NCBI GenBank assembly: GCA_043746695.1
Contig: JAYTQM010000830.1
Coordinates: 1-59,244 of the forward strand
DNA: 59,244 nt
Direction: 5' to 3'
Origin: Planctomyces sp.
Lineage (GTDB): Bacteria > Planctomycetota > Planctomycetia > Planctomycetales > Planctomycetaceae
Below the pieces are notes generated by a model. The model worked only from the letters and a program-made list of their open reading frames with translations, ran no database searches and had not been told where the DNA came from. Shown piece by piece: positions 3,793-56,590 of the stretch (its first letter is position 1; every line of letters begins with the position of its first letter). The position numbers and the translations under genes were made by a program.

Positions 3793-3799
3793 AGCGTCC

Positions 3800-4438
3800 T
3801 CCAGCCGAGCCGCTTGGAGCCGTCAGTGGTTGGAAGCGGTCGACGCGGGCCGGCTCAAAGGCGAGGCGATTCCGCTCGACGTGGTTCGCAAGCTGACGTT
3901 CCACAAAGAGGCGCGCGTGGCCGAACTGCTGAAGAAGCACTGGCCGAAACTCGAAGGAGCGTCGACCGCCGAGATGCAGCAACAAATGGAACGTTTTGCT
4001 CCAATCGCGAAGACCGAAGGGGGCGTGCCGTTCGAGGGGAAGAAGATCTACATGCAGTCGTGCGGCAAGTGTCACTTGCTGTTCGGCGAGGGAGGCCGCA
4101 TCGGGCCGGACCTGACGACGTTCAAACGGGACGACGTGATGCGGATTCTGCTCAACGTCGTGAACCCCAGCGCCGAAATCCGCGAAGGCTTTGAGAGCAT
4201 CACCGTCGTCAGCACCGACGGTCGCACGGTCAACGGATTCCTGGCCGATCAAGACAACCGAGTCGTCGTCGTCCGCGGCATCGACGGCCAGAACATCACG
4301 ATCGCTCGCGATGACATCGAAGAGATCGTCCCGTCCAAGAAGTCGCTGATGCCCGAAGGACTGCTTAACAATCTGACCGACGAGCAAATTCGGAATCTCT
4401 TCACGTACCTGAAAATTTCGCAGCCGTTGAATCAGTAG
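3800..4438 (+). pseudogene. Copy 2 of the duplication: 3' fragment (cytochrome c domain) of a paralogous PVC-type heme-binding gene
   Basis: 213 codons plus stop, 208/213 aa identical to the end of the 1-2249 product. It has no upstream domain, no signal peptide and no ATG/SD; the only start is a TTG at 3830. Confidence 0.6.
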
Positions 4439-5485: not shown

Positions 5486-5517
5486 ACCGCTGTTTGAAAA
5501 CGTGCGATGCCCACAAA

Positions 5518-5631
5518 CCCCATCGAGCTTGTCTCGATGGATTTGGGCTTTTGCACTACGTGGTGTGTCACTCGAAATCTTGAGCGTCGTAGTGCAAAGG
5601 CCCGCGAGTCACGGAGACAAGCTCGATGGGG
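5518..5631. repeat. REPIN-like family 1, copy A
   Basis: Left arm CCCCATCGAGCTTGTCTCGATGG..GGGCTTTTGCACTACG, 27-nt spacer, right arm CGTAGTGCAAAGGCCCGCGAG..GAGACAAGCTCGATGGGG. About 20 nt of family-specific flank on each side (5497-5646). Lies between convergent genes. Confidence 0.9.
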
Positions 5632-5646
5632 CGGTTTAATTGAAGG

Positions 5647-6378
5647 CTACTGATAATCCTGATGCGTCGGCTTGAGGATCAACTCCGGCACGTGAGCGCG
5701 CTTCGGGAGCGCGGCGATGGAGACGACGATGTCGCCGAAATCTTCCGGCTTAAGGATCGCGGCGCGGTGCTCGTCACTGACCGGCTTCGGGCGATGTTCG
5801 AGGATCGGGGTATCGACTTCGCCGGGATAGATCGTCGTCACGCGGATGCCGTTCTTGCCGTCTTCGTTGGCGACTGCGGTCGAGAGGCCAGACATCGCAA
5901 ACTTCGACGCAACATACGCGATGCCACCGAGCGCGAACGCTCGTTTGCCGCTGATCGACGAGATGTTGATGATGACGCCGTCTTGGCGTGCTCGCATCTG
6001 TGGCAACACGGCGTACATGCAGTTGTAGACGCCGGTCGCGTTGGCCGACATCAATTCGTCCCACTGCTCCGGACGCATCTCGGCCATCGTGCGATTCTTG
6101 ATATTCGTCCCGGCGGCGTTGACCAAGATGTCGATCTGGCCGAGCTGTTGCGTGGCCCAATCGAACAACGCATTCACTCCGGGGCGATCGCCGACATCGC
6201 ACGTGTGATAGATCATCAGCGGAGCTCTGGACCACGCGGCGACGGCCTCTTTCAGTTTGTCTTCGCGACGTCCGGCAATCGCGACTCGACAGCCAGCAGC
6301 CGCGAGTGCCTGCGCAATTCCGTATCCAATTCCCGTTGCTCCGCCGGTAATGAGCGCGGTTTTGTTTTGCAGTTTCAT
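5647..6378 (-). CDS. SDR family oxidoreductase
   Basis: Contains TGGATGIGYGIA (Rossmann glycine motif), NAAG, and the S..YVASK catalytic motif. Confidence 0.9.
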   Translation of the reverse strand: MKLQNKTALITGGATGIGYGIAQALAAAGCRVAIAGRREDKLKEAVAAWSRAPLMIYHTCDVGDRPGVNALFDWATQQLGQIDILVNAAGTNIKNRTMAEMRPEQWDELMSANATGVYNCMYAVLPQMRARQDGVIINISSISGKRAFALGGIAYVASKFAMSGLSTAVANEDGKNGIRVTTIYPGEVDTPILEHRPKPVSDEHRAAILKPEDFGDIVVSIAALPKRAHVPELILKPTHQDYQ

Positions 6379-8038: not shown

Positions 8039-8082
8039 CTATCAACTTACGATTCGTGGACTACTAGATCTCAATCAAGCGA

Positions 8083-8196
8083 CCCCACCGAGCTTTTCTC
8101 GGTGGCTCGCAGGCTTTTGCACTACGGCGGTCATGATCCCGAGTGAAATATTCCGTAGTGCAAAAGCCCGAATCCACCGAGGCAAGCTCGGTGGGG
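8083..8196. repeat. REPIN-like family 1, copy B (opposite orientation)
   Basis: Same architecture as copy A, but the CGCGAG linker is on the left arm. Family flanks CTCAATCAAGCGA / TCGCTTGTTTGAGG extend it to about 8069-8220. Confidence 0.9.
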
Positions 8197-8227
8197 TTGG
8201 TGGACATCGCTTGTTTGAGGACTTGGC

Positions 8228-9796
8228 TCACGAAAACGAACGTGGGGTTGAATCGTTGCTGTTCGTGACGTGACGTGATTGGCGCGGTAGGCGATGAGTG
8301 GTCGTCGCTTCTTTCCGGCGGGATTGGCTGTTGTCTGAGGGCAGGATTTGTTTGAGGAACTGGGGCAGGTCACTGCGGCCACCGCGTTGGTAGTCAGTGA
8401 GCAACACCTTGGCGGTCGGCTCTGCCAGAAGGTCACGTTCACTCGTCAGATAATCAAACAGCAACTCGGCGAGCTTGGCCAGCGGAATGCCAGCGAATCG
8501 ACCAAGGCGATCGTGTAACCACGCACTCAATTTCCAGAGCGACCAAAACGGCGATTGATCGCGCCACAGCAGCGGCAGTGTCTCCACAAAGTTACCGCTG
8601 TTGCCGAGCAAGTCCCACACGCGAGCAAACCGACGGACTCGACCAAGTGTTTCAGCGGTCATCGCGCCAGTGGAGAGAACTTCGTAAGGAGCATGTGGGC
8701 TGTAAACCATTTTCTCGGTCGCGTCATGTCGGATGATCGGCGTGCCACGCAGTCGCTTGAGAATGCCGACTTGAATCTCTTGCGGCTGCAAGGCGATCAA
8801 ACGATCGAACCCGTCGGCGAAACTTTCAAGCGGTTCACCGGGCAAACCCGCGATGAGGTCGGCATGAATGTGAACTCCGGTTTGTTCCCGAAGGAACTGA
8901 AAGTTCGCGGCAAGTTGTGCATTGTCCTGTCGTCGGCTGATGAGGTCCGCGACGTGATCGCTGAAGGTCTGCACGCCGACTTCAAACTGCAACACGCCAG
9001 GGGGGAACTGGACGATCAACTCACGCAACGCTTCAGGGAGTCGGTCGGGGATCATCTCGAAATGCAGAAAGAGATCCGGCTGCATTCGCTCCAAGAAGAA
9101 CTGCAAGATCGAGCGGCTGACGCGCGGATTCAAATTGAAGGTTCGATCGACAAACTTGAAGACACGACAGCCGCGATCTAACAACGACTGCATCGCATTC
9201 AAGAATGGTTCGAGCGGAAATTGACGAACCGGAATATCGAGCGCAGACAGACAGAATTCGCACGTGAAGGGACAACCGCGCGAGGCTTCGACGTAGATCA
9301 CTCGATGTGCGATGTCGTGATCCGAATACAGGTCATACGGCAAAACCAAGTCATCCAACCGTGGGATTTCCGGCACGATGATTTTTGTTTCTGGTCGGTG
9401 GCCAGCGAGCAACTCGCGACAAAGACGAGCGAACGCCAAATCCCCTTCGCCGGTGATGACGTAATCAGCCATCGCGACGATCGGCTGCTCGTCAAATTCA
9501 AAACTCACTTCCGGCCCGCCGAGCACAACAATAATGTCCGGCCGCAGTCGTTTCAGATCGGCAACGAGCCGTGTCGTTTGGTCGATGTTCCAGATGTAAA
9601 CCCCGATGCCGATGATCTTCGGCGAGGCCGTCAAAATAGCATCGAGCACTTCCAGCGTCAGATCATTGATCGTGAACTCAAGCAACGCGGCCCGGTCGCG
9701 AAGCTCACCCAAATTGGCCAGCAGATACCGCAACCCGAATGCACAATGCGGGTATTTGGCGTTCAACGTCGTCAGCAGGATTTCAGGCGGAGTCAT
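8228..9796 (-). CDS. B12-binding domain-containing radical SAM protein (DUF4080-type C-terminus)
   Basis: N-terminal B12-binding-like domain, then the [11 protein letters not shown] radical SAM cluster motif and a long C-terminal extension. Start is ATG at 9796 or GTG at 9805. Confidence 0.85.
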
Positions 9797-9980
9797 GAGT
9801 GGCACTGTAGCGAATCAAGCTCCGCCGCACTTGCCTCATCGGCGTCAACCAATCATTTATGAATTAGGACCGATCTCACGCGTCTCACCCCTCTGATAGC
9901 CAAGACCACAAGAAGACTTTGGCGAATTCAATCAGAGGAATGAAAGAAAGACAGTGGGATGAGGAGCTTTCAGCGAAAAA

Positions 9981-33804: not shown

Positions 33805-33864
33805 CACAGGCGGCTCGCCTGTGGGTTCCTCGATAAAATGCACAGGCGAGCCGCCTGTGCTACG
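33801..33864. repeat. REPIN-like family 2, copy b
   Basis: GTAGCACAGGCGGCTCGCCTGTGG, 16-nt spacer, CACAGGCGAGCCGCCTGTGCTACG. Stem of about 23 bp. Confidence 0.9.
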
Positions 33865-43837: not shown

Positions 43838-43880
43838 AGGATCGTCGAAGCATTCGATGATCCTTCACGCGATGTGCAAA

Positions 43881-43992
43881 CCCCACTGAGCTTGTCTCAG
43901 TGGTTTCAGGGCTTTTGCACTACGCCATTTCCCGTCGGGTGAACTCACAGGTAGTGCAAAGGCCCGAGTCCACCGAGGCAAGCTCGGTGGGG
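43881..43992. repeat. REPIN-like family 1, copy C
   Basis: CCCCACTGAGCTTGTCTCAGTGG..GGGCTTTTGCACTACG, 26 nt, GTAGTGCAAAGGCCCGAGTCCACCGAGGCAAGCTCGGTGGGG. Lies between convergent genes. Confidence 0.9.
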
Positions 43993-44032
43993 TTCGTGTC
44001 ACGCCTCTCGCAGCAGGCTTGTCGCAAACACC

Positions 44033-46303: not shown

Positions 46304-46612
46304 ATGATCCCCGTTTCTGATTCAACACCGGCGATGCTGCAAACCTTCTGCCTCGCGCATCAAATGCCCGAAGACCAACCGAGTTCGTTCGGCCTGATCT
46401 GTCGCGAGTGTCAGCAGCGTTTGCAAACCGAATCGCCGCAAGGCCGTTGCCGCAGCTTTTGGGAAAGTCAGCCGGTCATGAGCAACGGCGATCCGTGCGC
46501 GGTCTTCACACTCGCTTGGGACAACTTTCAGATTCGGTCATTGCATCAGAGCACCGCATGGGATGATCTCGAACGTGACGCAAGAGAGGTGTTGTCTTCA
46601 ACCCGCCGCTAA
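46304..46612 (+). CDS. hypothetical small protein
   Basis: 102-aa ORF with genome-like codon usage. No SD and no recognisable motif. Confidence 0.3.
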   Translation: MIPVSDSTPAMLQTFCLAHQMPEDQPSSFGLICRECQQRLQTESPQGRCRSFWESQPVMSNGDPCAVFTLAWDNFQIRSLHQSTAWDDLERDAREVLSSTRR

Positions 46613-46637
46613 TCCTCAAACAAACGCTGTTCTCCAG

Positions 46638-46752
46638 CTCCATCGAGCTTGCCTCGGTGGATTCCAGGCTTATGCACTACGAACGCTTTCACCCGAAATG
46701 CCACATCAAGTAGTGCCGAGGCCCGCGAGCCGCTGAGGCAAGCTCAATGGGG
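46638..46752. repeat. REPIN-like family 1, copy D (degenerate), overlapping a CDS 3' end
   Basis: CTCCATCGAGCTTGCCTCGGTGG..GCTTATGCACTACG, 28 nt, GTAGTGCCGAGGCCCGCGAGCCGCTGAGGCAAGCTCAATGGGG. Confidence 0.85.
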
Positions 46753-47548
46753 TTTCTTGGTTGAGCGCGATCTCTTCATCGCGCACGTCGGTCACGAACA
46801 TGCAACCGGGACTATGCGTGATGATCAGCGGCGGCTTCGCGGCCATGATCGCTGCTTGAGGCGTCACACCGCAGGCCCAGAAGACGGGAACCTCGTGGGC
46901 GTTCAGCGATACCGGATCGCCGAAGTCAGGACGGTCGATGTTCGTGATGCCGATTGCTGACGGATCGCCGATGTGGATCGGTGCTCCATGCACTGCCGGG
47001 TAACGTGAAGTGATTTGAACCGCGCGCACAGCATCGCTGGGTGTCATCGGCCGCATCGAAACGACGAGCGGACCATGAAACAGGCCCGCTGATCGGCAGG
47101 CGATGTTCGTCCGAAACATCGGCACGTTGACGCCGAGCTCGATGTGCCGCACCGGCAAGCCGGCTCGCAACAGCGCCGCCTCAAACGTGAACGAGCAGCC
47201 GATCACAAAGCTGACGAAATCGTCTTGCCAATACGCTGCGATGTCGGTCGGCTCATCAACCAACAGGCCATCACGCCACACACGGTAACGCGGCAAGTCC
47301 GTTCGCAAGTCTGCGTCCGGGGCCACGAGTCTCGGCACCGGATCACCCGGCTCGGTCACATCAAGCAACGGACAAGGCTTCGGGTTTCGCTGGCAGAACA
47401 GCAGAAAATCAAACGCCAATTCGCGCGGAAGGACAACGAGATTCGCCTGAGCGAACCCATCAGCCAGTCCACAAGTCGGCTTCGTCCAAGCACTTGATCG
47501 ACAGGCGGCACGCACGTCCGATCCGGCAGTGAGTTGGTGATTGCTCAT
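46706..47548 (-). CDS. putative hydro-lyase (DUF1445 / UPF0317, D-glutamate cyclase-like)
   Basis: [34 protein letters not shown] is highly characteristic. The last ~14 codons and the stop lie inside repeat copy D. Confidence 0.85.
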
Positions 47549-47632
47549 GATTGGCAGAGATTTCACCGCAAAGGCGCAAAGAACGCAAAGCGGCGGAGCG
47601 CCACCTTAAGTTGAAATCCCCTCCGCCTGTTT

Positions 47633-49885: not shown

Positions 49886-50008
49886 CAGTGTCCTGAAGCG
49901 GCACTGTTCGACAAGCTCATGAACCTGTCTTCGTCATTCAGACGGACAACCAATCCCGTCTTGCCCAACCAGACTCTTCCTGTTTCACACGAACTCTCGA
50001 TCAAGCGA

Positions 50009-50120
50009 CCCCACCGAGCTTGCCTCGGTGGCTCGCGGGCTTTGGCACTACGGCAACCTTGATTTCGGATGAAACCACGTAGTGCAAAAGCCCAAATCCA
50101 CCGAGACAAGCTCGGTGGGG
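50009..50120. repeat. REPIN-like family 1, copy E (same orientation as copy B)
   Basis: CCCCACCGAGCTTGCCTCGGTGGCTCGCGGGCTTTGGCACTACG, 26 nt, CGTAGTGCAAAAGCCCAAATCCACCGAGACAAGCTCGGTGGGG. Family flanks extend it to about 49991-50142. Confidence 0.9.
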
Positions 50121-50388
50121 TTGATGGACCTCGCTTAATTGAGGGCTAGTGTGAAACGACAGTCCTCACTATCGACGCAGCTTCGCAGAGAACTGGGAAA
50201 AAGAGGCAGTTGCGTCAGGACCGCATTGCGCCACAGCCCCGTCAAAGCCCGAGAAGTTCGCCACGTTTCACCAAGCGGTCGATGAGCCGCACGAAGTCAC
50301 CGCATAGATTGCGATGCGCGATTTCTCGCTGAATACCGCCGGTTGATTTGACCAAGTGTGGCACGACGCTCCGAGTCGTGATTCTTTC

Positions 50389-50453
50389 GTAGAGTAGGCG
50401 GCTCGCCTGCTGCATTTTTCGTGAAAACAAACAGGCGAGCCGCCTGTTCTACG
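50389..50453. repeat. REPIN-like family 2, copy c
   Basis: CGTAGAGTAGGCGGCTCGCCTGCTG, about 18 nt, AACAGGCGAGCCGCCTGTTCTACG. Confidence 0.85.
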
Positions 50454-51723: not shown

Positions 51724-51761
51724 GAGAGTGCCCTAATCCTAAAACAAGCGATCTCCACCAA

Positions 51762-51875
51762 CCCCACTGAGCATGTCTCAGTGGATTCGGGCTTTTGCAC
51801 TACGTCATGTTCCAATCGAAATCATGAACGCCGTAGTGCAAAAGCCCGCGAGCCACCGAGGCAAGCTCGGCGGGG
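51762..51875. repeat. REPIN-like family 1, copy F
   Basis: CCCCACTGAGCATGTCTCAGTGGATTCGGGCTTTTGCACTACG, 27 nt, CGTAGTGCAAAAGCCCGCGAGCCACCGAGGCAAGCTCGGCGGGG. The left flank AAAACAAGCGATCTCCACCAA is the reverse complement of copy B's right flank. Confidence 0.9.
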
Positions 51876-51940
51876 TCGCATATTTGTAGCCTGACGAGGC
51901 ATTTGTGTTATACCCCGACCCCACTTCTGAGATTTCCAGC

Positions 51941-53249: not shown

Positions 53250-53344
53250 CCCCACTGAGCTTGCCTCAGTGGAATCGGGCCTTTGCACTACGAGTTAGTA
53301 AGCGTAGTGCAAAAGCCCTAAGACCACCGAAACAAGCTCGGTGG
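53250..53344. repeat. REPIN-like family 1, copy G (short 10-nt spacer)
   Basis: CCCCACTGAGCTTGCCTCAGTGGAATCGGGCCTTTGCACTACG, spacer AGTTAGTAAG, CGTAGTGCAAAAGCCCTAAGACCACCGAAACAAGCTCGGTGG. Confidence 0.9.
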
Positions 53345-53359
53345 TCTCGACACAACTAC

Positions 53360-53471
53360 GTAGCCATCACGCTCCGCGTGATGAGCCGGATACTTCAAAC
53401 AGCTTTAATTCCGGTAAGTATCGTTGACTGTTGGGAGCGACCGGCTCGTCACGCGGAGCGATGACGGCTAC
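53360..53471. repeat. REPIN-like family 4 (single doublet)
   Basis: GTAGCCATCACGCTCCGCGTGATGAGCCGG, 51-nt spacer, CCGGCTCGTCACGCGGAGCGATGACGGCTAC. Each unit is a GTAG followed by a 7-bp hairpin. A fragment AGCGACCGGCTCGTCA also occurs at about 20646-20661. Confidence 0.8.
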
Positions 53472-53504
53472 GTAATTCTTCGGCTTCGCCGAGTTGTGTA
53501 GAGA

Positions 53505-53527
53505 CCACCGAGACAAGCTCGGTGGGG
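53505..53527. repeat. REPIN-like family 1, isolated terminal hairpin (half copy H)
   Basis: CCACCGAGACAAGCTCGGTGGGG lies in direct orientation to the terminal hairpin of copy G, separated from it by the family-4 doublet. Confidence 0.8.
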
Positions 53528-53550: not shown

Positions 53551-56256
53551 TCACAGCCCGGCCAGCAAAGGGTCGAAGTCGAAAGAGTAAATTTCATTGA
53601 TCTCCGACGCAGACCCGATGATCGTGTCGCTCGGATCTTTTCCAATACCGTTTCCGCCACCGGCCAGCTTGTCGGTTCCAGAATCGCCGGAAACAAAATC
53701 AACGCCCGCTTCGCCAAGCACTTTGTCGTTGCCGCTGCCGCCGTTAAGAGAATCATCGCCATCGCTGCCGAGGATCGTGTCGTTTCCGGAGCCGCCACTG
53801 ATTGTGTCGTTATCTGCCCCGCCGCGAATTGCGTCATTGCCTAATCCGCCTGAGAGACTGTCATCTCCTTCCTCGCCGTCGATGACGTCGTTTCCTTGGC
53901 CGCCGTCGATTGCGTCATTGCCGTCGCCGCCCTGCAGAATGTCGTTGCTCATTCCACCAAGCAGCGTGTCATCGCCGTTGGCTCCATTGAGGAAGACCGG
54001 AATTGGCGAACTGGTCGCGTCGATGAAGTTGTTGGAGTCGCCGCCCACGACTTGCACTTGCTCGAATTCCGAAATCGTCTTGCTTTCGAGCAGGATCGCA
54101 CTTTGCTCGATGATGACCACGTTGAAGTTCTGCTGCTTGACGAACACCAAGACCGAATCGGTCTCCTCGTAAAACAGGTCTTGGCCCGCACCGCCATTGA
54201 CCTTGTCGGCTCCTTGGCTACCGCTGATGGTGTCGTCTCCCTCTTGGCCATCCAGCGTGTCGTTCCCGTCGCCGCCCGTCATCTCATCATTGCCGAGACC
54301 ACCGAGTACTTGGTCGTTACCCGCTCCCCCTTCGAGTGTGTCGTTGCCGGAACCGCCCAAAACCGTGTCGTTCCCCTCGTCGCCGCTCACGAAGTCGTTG
54401 CCACCTGAGCCGTTCACGAGATCGTTGCCGGTGCCACCATCGACGAAATCATCTCCCAGCCCACCATCCAGGATGTCATTGCCTGACGCATCCGTGAGCG
54501 AGTCGTCGCCCAGTTCGCCGTAGATCTTGTCGTTATCAGCACCACCTTCGAGCGTGTCGTTTCCAGCCTGACCGGTGACGGTATCTTTGCCCGCACCGCC
54601 GTCGATTTCGTCGTTGTCGTTGCCCCCGACGAGGGAGTCGTTGCCATCTCCGCCCGACAGGCTGTCGTCACCATTCAGGCCATTCACAAGGTCGTTTCCA
54701 GCATCGCCACTGACAGTGTCGTCGCCATCATCGCCAGAGAGCGTGTCGTTCCCCGCTCCACCGGTGATGAGGTCCTCGTCACCACCGCCGACGATCGAAT
54801 CATTTCCGTCCTCGCCGTCGATGGTGTCATTGTCGATACCGCCGCTGATGACGTCGTTGCCGCTGCCGCCGAGAATTGAATCCGCACCCTCATCGCCGGT
54901 GATGCCATCCAGACCAGCTCCGCCATTGATCTCGTCGTCACCATCGCGGCCACGCAGCGAATCGTTGCCGTCTCCGCCGTTGAGGATGTCGTTTCCACTG
55001 CCGGCATCCAGGCTGTCGTTCCCGGTGTTTCCTTCGAGCGAGTCGTCCCCAACTCCGCCGAGCAGCGTGTCATTTCCGCTGCTGCCATCCAAGGTGTCAT
55101 CTCCGAATGCACCGTCGAGCAAGTCATCTCCGGAGCCGCCGGTGATGACGTCATTACCGGTTCCCCCTTCATCAGAGTTTTTGGCTCCGCCTCTAATCGA
55201 TCCGATGGCCGCTTCGATCGCTTTGCTTTCCACCGCGATATTGAGTGGATTGAAATTTTGCAGGCCCGCGACGGCGTCGTTGACTCCGCCACCTTCGAGC
55301 GTGTCGTTTTTCCCGCCACCTTCCAGCGTGTCAGACCCATCACCGCCGATCACCAAATCTTTGCCACCGCCACCAAACAGGACGTCGTCACCTAAACCTC
55401 CGACGAGAGTCACTGACATGGATGCCGCAGAAGCGTCGATCGAATTGCCGTCGTCGCCGCCAATCAGCAGCACTCGCTCGATGCCTGTGAAGCTTTCGAC
55501 ATCTTCTGGCAACGTCCCTAATCCCGTAAGGGTGGAATTCGTCAGCTTGATCGAGCTGACGTTGCTCTGTTGGACGAACAGGTCAACTCCGCCACAGCCC
55601 CCTTCGATGCGGTCTGTCCCGGCCCCCGCTTGAAGTGTGTCGTTGCCGTTCTGGCCATCCACGACGTCGTTGTCGTCGCCACCATCCAAGAAGTCCGCTC
55701 CGTCGCCGCCTCGCAAAGTGTCATTGCCCAAGCCGCCGAAAATCGTGTCGTCACCGGCGCGGCCGTGGAGCACATCGTTTCCATCTTCGCCGCCAAAGAA
55801 ATCGCCGCTCTTGCCCCCCAGAACCGTGTCGTTGCCGGCACCGCCAAACACCGTTGTTGCCTGTGGGAAGTCCGGCAGGTCCAAGCGGTCGTCTCCGTCA
55901 CCCAAGTTCGCAATCAGACCACGACTTACCAACGCGCCGGAGACGCGAACCTGATCTGTGAAAGTGACTTTGTCAGTCGTCAACTCGTCCGTCTTCGCAG
56001 TGACGAGGAACTCGTTGTTTTTCTTGTTGTATTGCACGGTGATATTGCTGGATGTTCCGGCAATGTCGTCGAGCAAAAGATGCCCTTTGTTATCGACATG
56101 GACGAAGACGTCTGCGGTTAGCAGCCGCCGCGATTCCAGTTGCTCAGCGTGCGGAATTCGCAGCGTCATGCGGCCGGTTGGACGCAGCATCTCTTTGACG
56201 AAACGGGAGGAACGCAATTTGGACTGAACCGACCGGAGCCACGACGAGAAGAACAT
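53551..56256 (-). CDS. RTX-type calcium-binding repeat protein (hemolysin-type GGxGxD nonapeptides)
   Basis: Dozens of GG.GNDxLxG repeats are interrupted by three related ~60-aa modules. The N-terminus carries a signal-like segment and LESRRLL. Start ATG at 56256. Confidence 0.85.
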   Translation of the reverse strand: MFFSSWLRSVQSKLRSSRFVKEMLRPTGRMTLRIPHAEQLESRRLLTADVFVHVDNKGHLLLDDIAGTSSNITVQYNKKNNEFLVTAKTDELTTDKVTFTDQVRVSGALVSRGLIANLGDGDDRLDLPDFPQATTVFGGAGNDTVLGGKSGDFFGGEDGNDVLHGRAGDDTIFGGLGNDTLRGGDGADFLDGGDDNDVVDGQNGNDTLQAGAGTDRIEGGCGGVDLFVQQSNVSSIKLTNSTLTGLGTLPEDVESFTGIERVLLIGGDDGNSIDASAASMSVTLVGGLGDDVLFGGGGKDLVIGGDGSDTLEGGGKNDTLEGGGVNDAVAGLQNFNPLNIAVESKAIEAAIGSIRGGAKNSDEGGTGNDVITGGSGDDLLDGAFGDDTLDGSSGNDTLLGGVGDDSLEGNTGNDSLDAGSGNDILNGGDGNDSLRGRDGDDEINGGAGLDGITGDEGADSILGGSGNDVISGGIDNDTIDGEDGNDSIVGGGDEDLITGGAGNDTLSGDDGDDTVSGDAGNDLVNGLNGDDSLSGGDGNDSLVGGNDNDEIDGGAGKDTVTGQAGNDTLEGGADNDKIYGELGDDSLTDASGNDILDGGLGDDFVDGGTGNDLVNGSGGNDFVSGDEGNDTVLGGSGNDTLEGGAGNDQVLGGLGNDEMTGGDGNDTLDGQEGDDTISGSQGADKVNGGAGQDLFYEETDSVLVFVKQQNFNVVIIEQSAILLESKTISEFEQVQVVGGDSNNFIDATSSPIPVFLNGANGDDTLLGGMSNDILQGGDGNDAIDGGQGNDVIDGEEGDDSLSGGLGNDAIRGGADNDTISGGSGNDTILGSDGDDSLNGGSGNDKVLGEAGVDFVSGDSGTDKLAGGGNGIGKDPSDTIIGSASEINEIYSFDFDPLLAGL

Positions 56257-56590
56257 GCTGAGCGTCTCCCAAACGACACAACTGGCGAAGCAAGCTGGAG
56301 CGGCACGGTGAGCACACTCCGCATTCCAGATCGGTTCGCCACGGCGCTTCACCGCACCATCGGTAGAAAGGTTCTAACCGTCTCGCGAATGAGCGGATGG
56401 TTGTCGCGGGCGTATGGATTTTGCTGCCATTGGCGCGGGCATCGGCAAGAAAGTATCTCTTTGACACTCAGGGCTGAGTTCGTGTCGGCCGGGGTGTATT
56501 CGGATTGGCTCAACCGTCGCTGTTCCCTTTTCTTGCCCCACTTCTCTTGCCAGATTTGAGGTCAAACACAGGTTTCAAATGCTGCGCACA

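Follow-up and report, generated by a model that had tools for sequence, protein, structure and literature searches.

Polar REPIN-like doublets of Planctomycetaceae and a two-domain Y1-type gene bracketed by the same units

Background

Repetitive extragenic palindromes (REPs), their inverted doublets (REPINs) and the REP-associated tyrosine transposases (RAYTs) are best studied in a few Proteobacteria, and their origin from IS200-like insertion sequences is still argued. Here we describe a family of GTAG-tagged palindromic doublets in a stretch of 59,244 nucleotides from Planctomyces sp. (GenBank assembly GCA_043746695.1, contig JAYTQM010000830.1; this whole stretch is referred to below as the window), together with a gene from related genomes that is bracketed by the same units. 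GTAG-tagged REPs as such are not new to the phylum: the text of PMC3733652 reports them in a planctomycete, R. baltica, and for the Planctomycetes-Verrucomicrobia-Chlamydiae (PVC) superphylum it describes the families GTAG-20, -21 and -22 of R. baltica and REPs of O. terrae.

Among the TnpA-Y1 proteins classified in PMC6006769, subclass 1.2 has a Y---Q--HH signature and low copy number, is 148 aa long with the HUH motif and the tyrosine in one domain, is not associated with REPs and occurs in Cyanobacteria and Bacteroidetes. Class 3 of the same work is found mainly in Planctomycetes; its proteins have 178 aa with NHVH and YV..EQ motifs, and its genes are flanked by atypical, sometimes numerous hairpins with a CnGA foot. 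A few unusually long proteins in each subclass were set aside there as gene fusions or annotation errors.

With a probability of about three in four, we hold that the elements described here are non-autonomous, REPIN-like, head-to-head heterodimer doublets that occur throughout the Planctomycetaceae and are tied to a two-domain Y1 gene, which is encoded elsewhere and is bracketed by the same units.

Results

Units, doublets and polarity

A 16-nt box, GTAGTGCAAAAGCCCG, searched for with up to 3 mismatches, has 15 matches in the window where 0.37 are expected, and none of 100 shuffles reaches 15. Fourteen of these matches make up the seven inverted pairs of Table 1. A 23-nt hairpin, CCACCGAGGCAAGCTCGGTGGGG, matches 11 times in the window against an expectation of 0.00, and one of these matches is the lone copy at 53505-53527. 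The pattern matches and shuffles thus bear out the seven inverted doublets and one lone hairpin that had been recognized by inspection, at the same positions.

The unit is about 43 nt long and reads GTAG-TGCAAAAG-CC, followed by a bulge of 4-5 nt, an 8-bp stem that encloses a GCAAG or ACAAG loop, and GG. In the doublet, CC, the 8-bp stem with its CTTGY loop, a linker and GGGCTTTTGCACTAC form one side, and across the spacer GTAGTGCAAAAGCCC, a linker, the stem with its RCAAG loop and GG form the other. The GTAG is invariant in all 14 units of the window and is set 8-10 nt apart from the foot of the hairpin. Measured from CTAC to GTAG, the spacers of the window copies have 27-29 nt, and that of the copy at 53.3 kb has 12 nt; the 26-28 nt and 10 nt given in the original prediction differ from these values solely by how the flanking G/C is counted. 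The asymmetries pointed out at the same time, which are a CGCGAG linker against a GAAT-type one, a spacer core of the form TTTCACTCGAAAT and flanks that travel with the element, are present in the copies and recur in other species. The flanks form an outer inverted repeat (CCTCAAACAAGCGA plus a 10-nt insert on the left, TCGCTTGATTGAGG on the right; about 13-19 nt in the long form), so that the full element is about 159 nt long. One doublet outside the window, at 1145-1186 of locus L015, has a spacer that is a tandem duplication (two copies of TTGAATTGCTCAGAAAAAAC).

These asymmetries give the element a direction. With a profile derived from the window, one strand outscores the other by 58-76 bits in five window copies and by 30 bits in the 53.3-kb copy. 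The directions read earlier from the sequence agree with the strand scores for the copies at 5.5, 46.6 and 51.8 kb (+) and at 8.1 and 50.0 kb (-), and the scores place the 53.3-kb copy on + as well; the 43.9-kb copy does point to + as claimed, but its polarity is weak (125 vs 105 bits). Twenty-seven sites from several metagenome-assembled genomes (MAGs) show the polar long form, one strand scoring at least 20 bits better against the same profile. Since the long form recurs in this way, polarity and outer arms are features of the family and not accidents of the window. Orientation is also unrelated to the direction of transcription, as had been thought from the window alone: in tandem gene contexts 9 copies are co-oriented and 6 anti-oriented, counts which, like all our gene-context statistics, rest on crude gene calls from open reading frames (ORFs) and are indicative only.

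Which fold is maintained

Two folds had been offered for the element, a single hairpin of about 45 bp or a cruciform with two terminal 8-bp hairpins. The long hairpin folds on either strand (-61 kcal/mol, z = -11), as any palindrome would, and across the elements z lies between -8 and -11. The substitutions within the 183 units known to us (see below) tell the two folds apart. At stem position 5 there are 135 C-G and 24 T-A pairs against 18 half-changed ones, at position 7 there are 164 A-T and 17 G-C pairs, and double changes equal or exceed half-changes. In 64 distinct arm pairs, Watson-Crick pairing within an arm amounts to 94.6% in the 8-bp hairpins, and double-change cells number 52, spread over 11 of 16 pairs; with shuffled partners the figure is 86.4 +/- 0.5%, and not one of 1000 shuffles comes up to 94.6%. 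Over the same columns the two arms pair with each other at 86.1%, against 86.3% for random re-pairing, and variant stems are confined to one arm in 17 of 18 and in 14 of 15 doublets. As read from the sequences, a two-base extension of the stem across the 4-5 nt bulge also co-varies with subfamily (..GCCC/..GG vs ..GCCG/..CG). Because covariation is found within arms and not between them, what is maintained is each terminal hairpin by itself, and not the long hairpin. The terminal hairpins of the original proposal are thus backed by covariation, whereas the 45-bp hairpin, stable as it is, lacks that support.

Distribution

A degenerate pattern of the unit was scanned against a collection with one genome per species. 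At least 88 stretches match, nearly all of them labelled as Planctomycetaceae or Planctomycetales MAGs from lakes and groundwater, and thus the family is not restricted to the window. Among the matches listed, taken together with the window, there are 183 units, which form 82 head-to-head doublets against about 6 true singletons; the spacers of the doublets are 9-41 nt long with a mode of 29, and the true singletons start precisely at GTAG. An identical left/right heterodimer is present at four loci within one MAG, which fits a doublet that is copied as a unit. The element was not found in the plasmids of PLSDB.

Typical copies of the family are also carried by the MAGs L016, L063 (CAMDPK01) and L032 (CAYYVW01), which are labelled 'Candidatus Kuenenia stuttgartiensis' and 'uncultured Verrucomicrobiaceae'; these labels, or the binning, may be wrong. 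At two other loci, different subfamilies lie beside the 3' ends of homologous genes, a form with T-rich linkers in L006 (4321-4434) and the long polar form in L033 (7273-7384), which suggests independent insertions or turnover at similar positions. Metagenome contigs L102, L104, L112, L116 and L117 end inside the element. The repeats break metagenome assemblies of Planctomycetaceae, and annotators are advised to mask them.

A Y1-type gene bracketed by the units

No Y1 transposase is encoded in the window, and the earlier statement that it holds no RAYT/Y1 gene agrees with our motif and tblastn searches. Expressions for a HUH...Y..NP motif and tblastn with E. coli RayT gave nothing in the window or in the 88 loci, a search for homologues of E. 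coli RayT returned enterobacterial proteins only, and tblastn of RayT against plasmids gave no PVC match. The partner gene came to light when the ORFs in the L071 repeat cluster were read; the motif expressions had missed it because they are too strict for a protein whose motifs are split. The ORF in L071 encodes 284 aa, contains LPDHVHLL and is bracketed by units: 30 nt separate the nearest one from the ATG, and a doublet begins 10 nt past the stop codon.

Four homologues from other assemblies and metagenomes, P0249, P0251, P0248 and P0245 (74-78% identical; loci L109/L110, L111/L112, L113 and L114-L117), are all bracketed likewise; a doublet follows the stop codon at a distance of 7-25 nt, and on the other side units end 29-49 nt before the start. 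Their wider neighbours all differ and include type I restriction genes, an antitoxin, an extracytoplasmic function (ECF) sigma factor and a cytochrome-c protein. A more distant homologue, P0266 (56% identical, L118), is enclosed precisely by one doublet. The ATG of the gene shares bases with the ..GCACTA end of the left unit, and its TAG stop codon is the TAG of the (G)TAG box of the right unit; the two bracketing units are near-perfect inverted copies of each other, and a further unit is nested outside on each side. Seen from L118, the head-to-head doublet looks like the same structure minus the gene. In all, the Y1 gene is bracketed by units in 6 of 6 related contexts examined, two of which are the same locus in two assemblies, and the unit-flanked Y1 transposase gene that was predicted to lie outside the window is thereby present in related genomes.

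The databases hold 738 homologues, typically of about 264 aa. Many of them are on contigs of about 1 kb, where the gene often stands alone, as one would expect if flanking repeats break assemblies, and many carry the automatic name 'REP element-mobilizing transposase RayT' given by the Joint Genome Institute (JGI). Most of the protein clusters listed are seen on one or a few contigs, which fits a low copy number of the gene. No tnpB-like gene neighbours the partner gene in its loci.

The partner protein

Two domains are seen in alignments of 33 and of 118 members of the family. Pfam Y1_Tnp (PF01797) matches the L071 protein with 28.7 bits (cut-off 23), in the C-terminal domain only. In the N-terminal domain S-x-F stands in place of HUH (S in 117 and F in 113 of 118 members), and Y141 (116/118), Q145 (118/118) and H148/H149 (105 and 115 of 118) are retained. 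The C-terminal domain has D231-H232-u-H234 (115, 117 and 117 of 118), and the chain ends about 50 residues later without a tyrosine helix. A profile search of solved structures finds the IS200 transposases 2EC2 and 2F4F (E = 1.8e-11); the C-terminal domain aligns to residues 3-77 of the Sulfolobus IS200 transposases and the second half of the N-terminal domain to residues 65-136. An AlphaFold2 model (pLDDT 91.9, pTM 0.86) has its best specific Foldseek matches among the ISDra2, IS608 and IS200 transposases, with a TM of about 0.75 and a root-mean-square deviation of about 2.3 A over about 115 residues. The profile-profile match of the two halves to each other is weak (E = 0.038) and sets S-L-F against H-V-H. 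An exhaustive search of cluster representatives returned 223 clusters at 50% identity with E <= 1e-30, mostly over the full two-domain length.

A canonical RAYT is ruled out for this protein by its score with the NCBIfam RAYT model (NF047646), by its Y-x3-Q-x2-HH motif in place of YxxxNP, and by the placing of HUH and tyrosine on separate domains. An ordinary IS200/IS605 TnpA is ruled out by the score with the NCBIfam IS200 model (NF033573), by the split motifs and by the lack of a tnpB neighbour. The earlier suggestion that a RAYT mobilizes the elements is therefore correct insofar as a Y1/HUH gene is bracketed by the units, but the partner is an IS200-like two-domain protein and not a canonical RAYT. 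In dimers of IS200/IS605 TnpA, each active site is made of the HUH motif of one subunit and the tyrosine of the other. The simplest reading of the alignments is that the partner would be a single-chain pseudo-dimer with one composite active site.

Insertion sites

The MMPL protein encoded next to a copy was used to scan metagenomes, which gave 11 loci, two of them useful as empty alleles. Copy 4 is missing from the orthologous alleles of two independent relatives, L056 (a MAG) and L090 (a metagenome contig), whose flanking genes are about 85% identical. The empty alleles read ..CCGCTAA|CTCTTC.. or ..TAA|TTCTTC.., and in the window TAA and CTCTTC are 159 nt apart (46613-46771). The insertion is precise, directly 3' of CTAA and without target duplication. 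It directly follows the TAA stop codon of ORF 46304-46612. The convergent D-Glu cyclase gene (46706-47566, - strand) has lost its last 4 codons to the insertion and ends instead in 19 codons encoded by the element. Copy 5 is likewise absent from the 85%-identical metagenome contigs L090 and L091. Flank-to-flank BLAST among the loci gave one orthologous filled pair and some partial cases, and records of identical proteins showed no arrangement other than the one already seen.

A YTAR tetranucleotide (CTAA, CTAG or TTAG) stands one base before the left arm in 8 of the 13 copies with a recognizable left arm, where base counting predicts about 1.6%. In three of these eight, TAR is the in-frame stop codon of a long ORF; since YTAR holds TAA or TAG, the motif may help to explain why several copies directly follow stop codons. 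A similar tetranucleotide closes the element on its right in several copies. The one clean site and the statistics of the flanks together suggest that YTAR would be the rule for the target. Single-strand transposition of the IS608/ISDra2 type inserts 3' of a short motif without duplication and leaves about 20-25 nt between the ends and the subterminal hairpins.

Copies in the window and their neighbours

The copies of the window are given in Table 1. All seven are intergenic or lie at the last codons of a gene, three of them between convergent and four between tandem genes. The genes around them are ordinary chromosomal ones (BKACE, SDR, glucuronyl esterase, radical-SAM, Uma2, hslU/hslV, D-Glu cyclase, MMPL, deiodinase-like, DUF4432 and an RTX protein). 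Copy 1 fills the 161 nt that separate the BKACE and SDR genes, which converge on it, copy 2 starts about 7 nt past the stop codon of the radical-SAM gene (8228-9805, - strand), copy 3 is sited between the convergent Uma2 and hslU genes and has its spacer core inverted and interrupted, and copy 6 is flanked by the DUF4432 and deiodinase-like genes, both on the - strand.

Table 1. Elements of the family in the window
Element	Extent	Strand	Core doublet	Remarks
Copy 1	5493..5650	+	5518-5631	full extent approximate; nhmmer 156.9 bits on +, 80.6 on -
Copy 2	8064..8221	-	8083-8196	nhmmer 167.2 vs 97.9 bits
Copy 3	43856..44011	+	43881-43992	weakly polar, nhmmer 125.0 vs 105.1 bits
Copy 4	46613..46771	+		159 nt; exact limits set by two empty alleles
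Copy 5	49990..50145	-	50009-50120	
Copy 6	51737..51894	+	51762-51875	runs against transcription
Copy 7	53250..53346	+		short doublet with a 12-nt spacer, without the conserved outer arms
Lone terminal hairpin	53498..53527	+		hairpin at 53505-53527; GTAG-AGA precedes it; without the TGCAAAAGCCC box

A second, canonical GTAG REP family is found at 53354-53477. Its unit is GTAGCC with a 7-bp stem (ATCACGC/GCGTGAT) and a TCC loop, its units stand tail-to-tail with about 50 nt between them, and it is also present in L022, L027, L065, L070, L077 and L078. The gap at 53.25-53.53 kb is thus a REP mosaic of copy 7, this second family and the lone hairpin. Next to it, 53551-56352 (- strand) encodes a 933-aa protein of RTX calcium-binding nonapeptide repeats, which give the DNA a dense 27-nt periodicity at 53.7-55.8 kb; giant repeat proteins homologous to it adjoin REP copies in L006, L007, L033 and L071.

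Two further repeats of the window are of other kinds. A 35-nt motif common to 50419-50453 and 33830-33864 (83% identical) contains a GC-rich hairpin (ACAGGCGAGCCGCCTGT) followed by a T-run on the - strand. The instance at 50419-50453 lies downstream of the deiodinase-like gene, before copy 5 is reached, and has the look of a true intrinsic terminator that is separate from the REP elements. Direct repeats of 300 nt each, at 1610-1909 and 3799-4098, are 94% identical and 2.2 kb apart. They lie inside or beside the large ORFs 54-2249 and 3830-4438, which have paralogues in several loci, and are probably a partial gene duplication.

Discussion

A maintained stem-loop, dispersed extragenic copies, inverted doublets and a unit-flanked Y1 gene in related contexts together uphold the REP/REPIN interpretation first made from the window. 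Most likely it would be the two-domain Y1 protein that moves the doublets. In the mechanism that we propose, the Y1 enzyme would recognize the small hairpin and the GTAG box of a unit on single-stranded DNA and would cut and rejoin by HUH/tyrosine chemistry, as IS200/IS605 TnpA and RAYTs do. The whole doublet, with an outer arm of about 20-25 nt on each side, would move as one oriented piece and would be inserted 3' of a YTAR tetranucleotide without target duplication. That this takes place on a single strand is suggested by analogy with those enzymes. We would go further only tentatively, and rather doubt than believe that all of the following holds together: that the partner is an undescribed single-chain IS200-type pseudo-dimer with exactly one composite site, and that the doublets are its gene-less derivatives, the gene-carrying state being visible in L118, which insert 3' of YTAR, often at stop codons.

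Several observations weigh against a REPIN-like family tied to this gene. The GTAG is not at the foot of the hairpin, unlike in the REPs that have been studied. The genome of the window is covered by a single metagenome scaffold of 62.6 kb in ENA, in which no partner gene was found, and the partner protein scores only 19 bits with NF047646 (cut-off 80) and 32 bits with NF033573 (cut-off 55). There is a single clean empty allele, the surroundings of the empty 50.0-kb site having diverged in the relatives. No copy is present in about 30 kb from relatives with a 74-84% identical esterase, so the distribution is patchy; the neighbourhoods of orthologues of the glucuronyl esterase show no conserved synteny, no copies and no extra empty sites. 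Finally, at the orthologous filled site L034/L076 the arms differ at 1 position and the spacer at 5, with flanks 81-89% identical, a pattern that may stem from selection at the level of the host or from gene conversion instead of recent mobility.

This last pattern leads to the alternative that survives best, which we nevertheless think unlikely, namely that the elements have lost their mobility and persist chiefly because of a function in the host, such as protection of mRNA 3' ends, protein binding or structuring of the nucleoid, with the link to the Y1 gene being historical. Host functions of that sort have been proposed for E. coli REP/BIME. The near-invariant arms at L034/L076, where spacer and flanks diverge, would be expected from such a function, as would the conservation of sequence across genera and the position of the copies, which in the window are near the 3' ends of genes and overall have a median core-to-stop-codon distance of 14 nt by the crude gene calls. 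Yet the polar long form shows no strand bias in its 9 co-oriented and 6 anti-oriented copies, presence and absence vary among close relatives, and homologous genes have different subfamilies beside them (L006/L033). It is also hard to see from this alternative why heterodimers specific to one genome recur, or why, in six contexts, units stand close on both sides of a gene that has conserved its catalytic residues. A host function is, in any case, compatible with mobility.

Far less probable is that the elements are strand-specific structured RNA genes or intrinsic terminators. The very stable folds (z = -8 to -11) and the compensatory changes in the terminal hairpins are what a structured RNA would show, but the units stand on either side of a transposase-type gene, which in one lineage they enclose, and the elements occur in both orientations relative to flanking genes. 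Comparison with Rfam, which had been called for when the family was first noticed, gives 0 matches in the window at the gathering score; matches below that threshold are to microRNA-precursor models only and reflect generic long hairpins. The hairpins have no T-tract behind them, and in 43-54 kb there are 21 terminator-like sites, not one of which falls on a copy. Ordinary miniature inverted-repeat transposable elements (MITEs), that is, deletion derivatives of an insertion sequence with a DDE transposase and terminal inverted repeats, would account for the outer inverted repeats of about 13-19 nt in the long form but are the least credible explanation, as the clean empty site (a single site) has no target-site duplication, the unit-bracketed gene is of the Y1/HUH type, and no DDE transposase recurs beside the units, where the recurrent ORF families are DUF1501, PSCyt/PSD1 and protein kinases.

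The more tentative reading, with its single-chain pseudo-dimer and gene-less doublets, would, if true, make this system a living intermediate between the dimeric transposases of insertion sequences and the single-site enzymes that maintain REP populations; and if the single composite site is real, it would illustrate one way in which a dimeric transposase with two sites can become an enzyme with one. A phylum distant from the Proteobacteria here has a well-populated and clearly polar REP family, for which at least one insertion site is precise and one lineage still has the gene inside the doublet, and the system offers a simple protein and a 43-nt substrate for biochemistry.

Compared with the REP/REPIN-RAYT systems of Proteobacteria (E. 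coli REP/BIME with RayT, Pseudomonas REPINs; PMC3116915, PMC3337134), the planctomycete elements are alike in being short GTAG-tagged extragenic palindromes, mostly in inverted doublets with a spacer, with many copies per genome, a unit-bracketed Y1/HUH gene, no target duplication and persistence across related species. They are unlike them in that a conserved 8-nt box (TGCAAAAG) parts the GTAG from the foot of the hairpin and the stem has a bulge of 4-5 nt, and in that the doublets are polar heterodimers with conserved outer arms. Unlike a proteobacterial RAYT, the partner is not a single-domain protein, and its tyrosine motif is Y---Q--HH and not YxxxNP.

The GTAG REPs of R. baltica, as the text of PMC3733652 describes them, belong to the same phylum and are the same kind of element, with a predominance of head-to-head dimers, conserved spacers, heterodimers and coexisting families. 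The host of the present family differs, being of the freshwater Planctomycetaceae and not of the Pirellulales. GTAGTGC and CCACCGAG are absent from the text supplements of PMC3733652; that comparison covers the text and not the consensus figure of the paper, and the present family may yet be identical with one of those described there.

With the TnpA of IS200/IS605 (IS608, ISDra2; PMC6006769) the system shares the protein fold, subterminal hairpins about 20-25 nt from the end of an oriented element, insertion 3' of a short specific sequence without duplication and, in L118, a gene that lies between two ends. It differs in having no adjoining tnpB, in ends that are inverted copies and not hairpins of the same strand, and in a partner whose HUH and tyrosine motifs are on two fused domains, unlike in the homodimer. 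The Y---Q--HH signature is shared with TnpA-Y1 subclass 1.2, but unlike both that subclass and class 3 the partner has 264 aa, split motifs and GTAG units. No class tabulated in PMC6006769 has the length and motif arrangement of the partner, novelty being judged here against PMC6006769 and PMC3733652 alone. The departures from the studied systems are thus the distance between GTAG and hairpin, the polar doublet with its outer arms and, above all, the partner protein.

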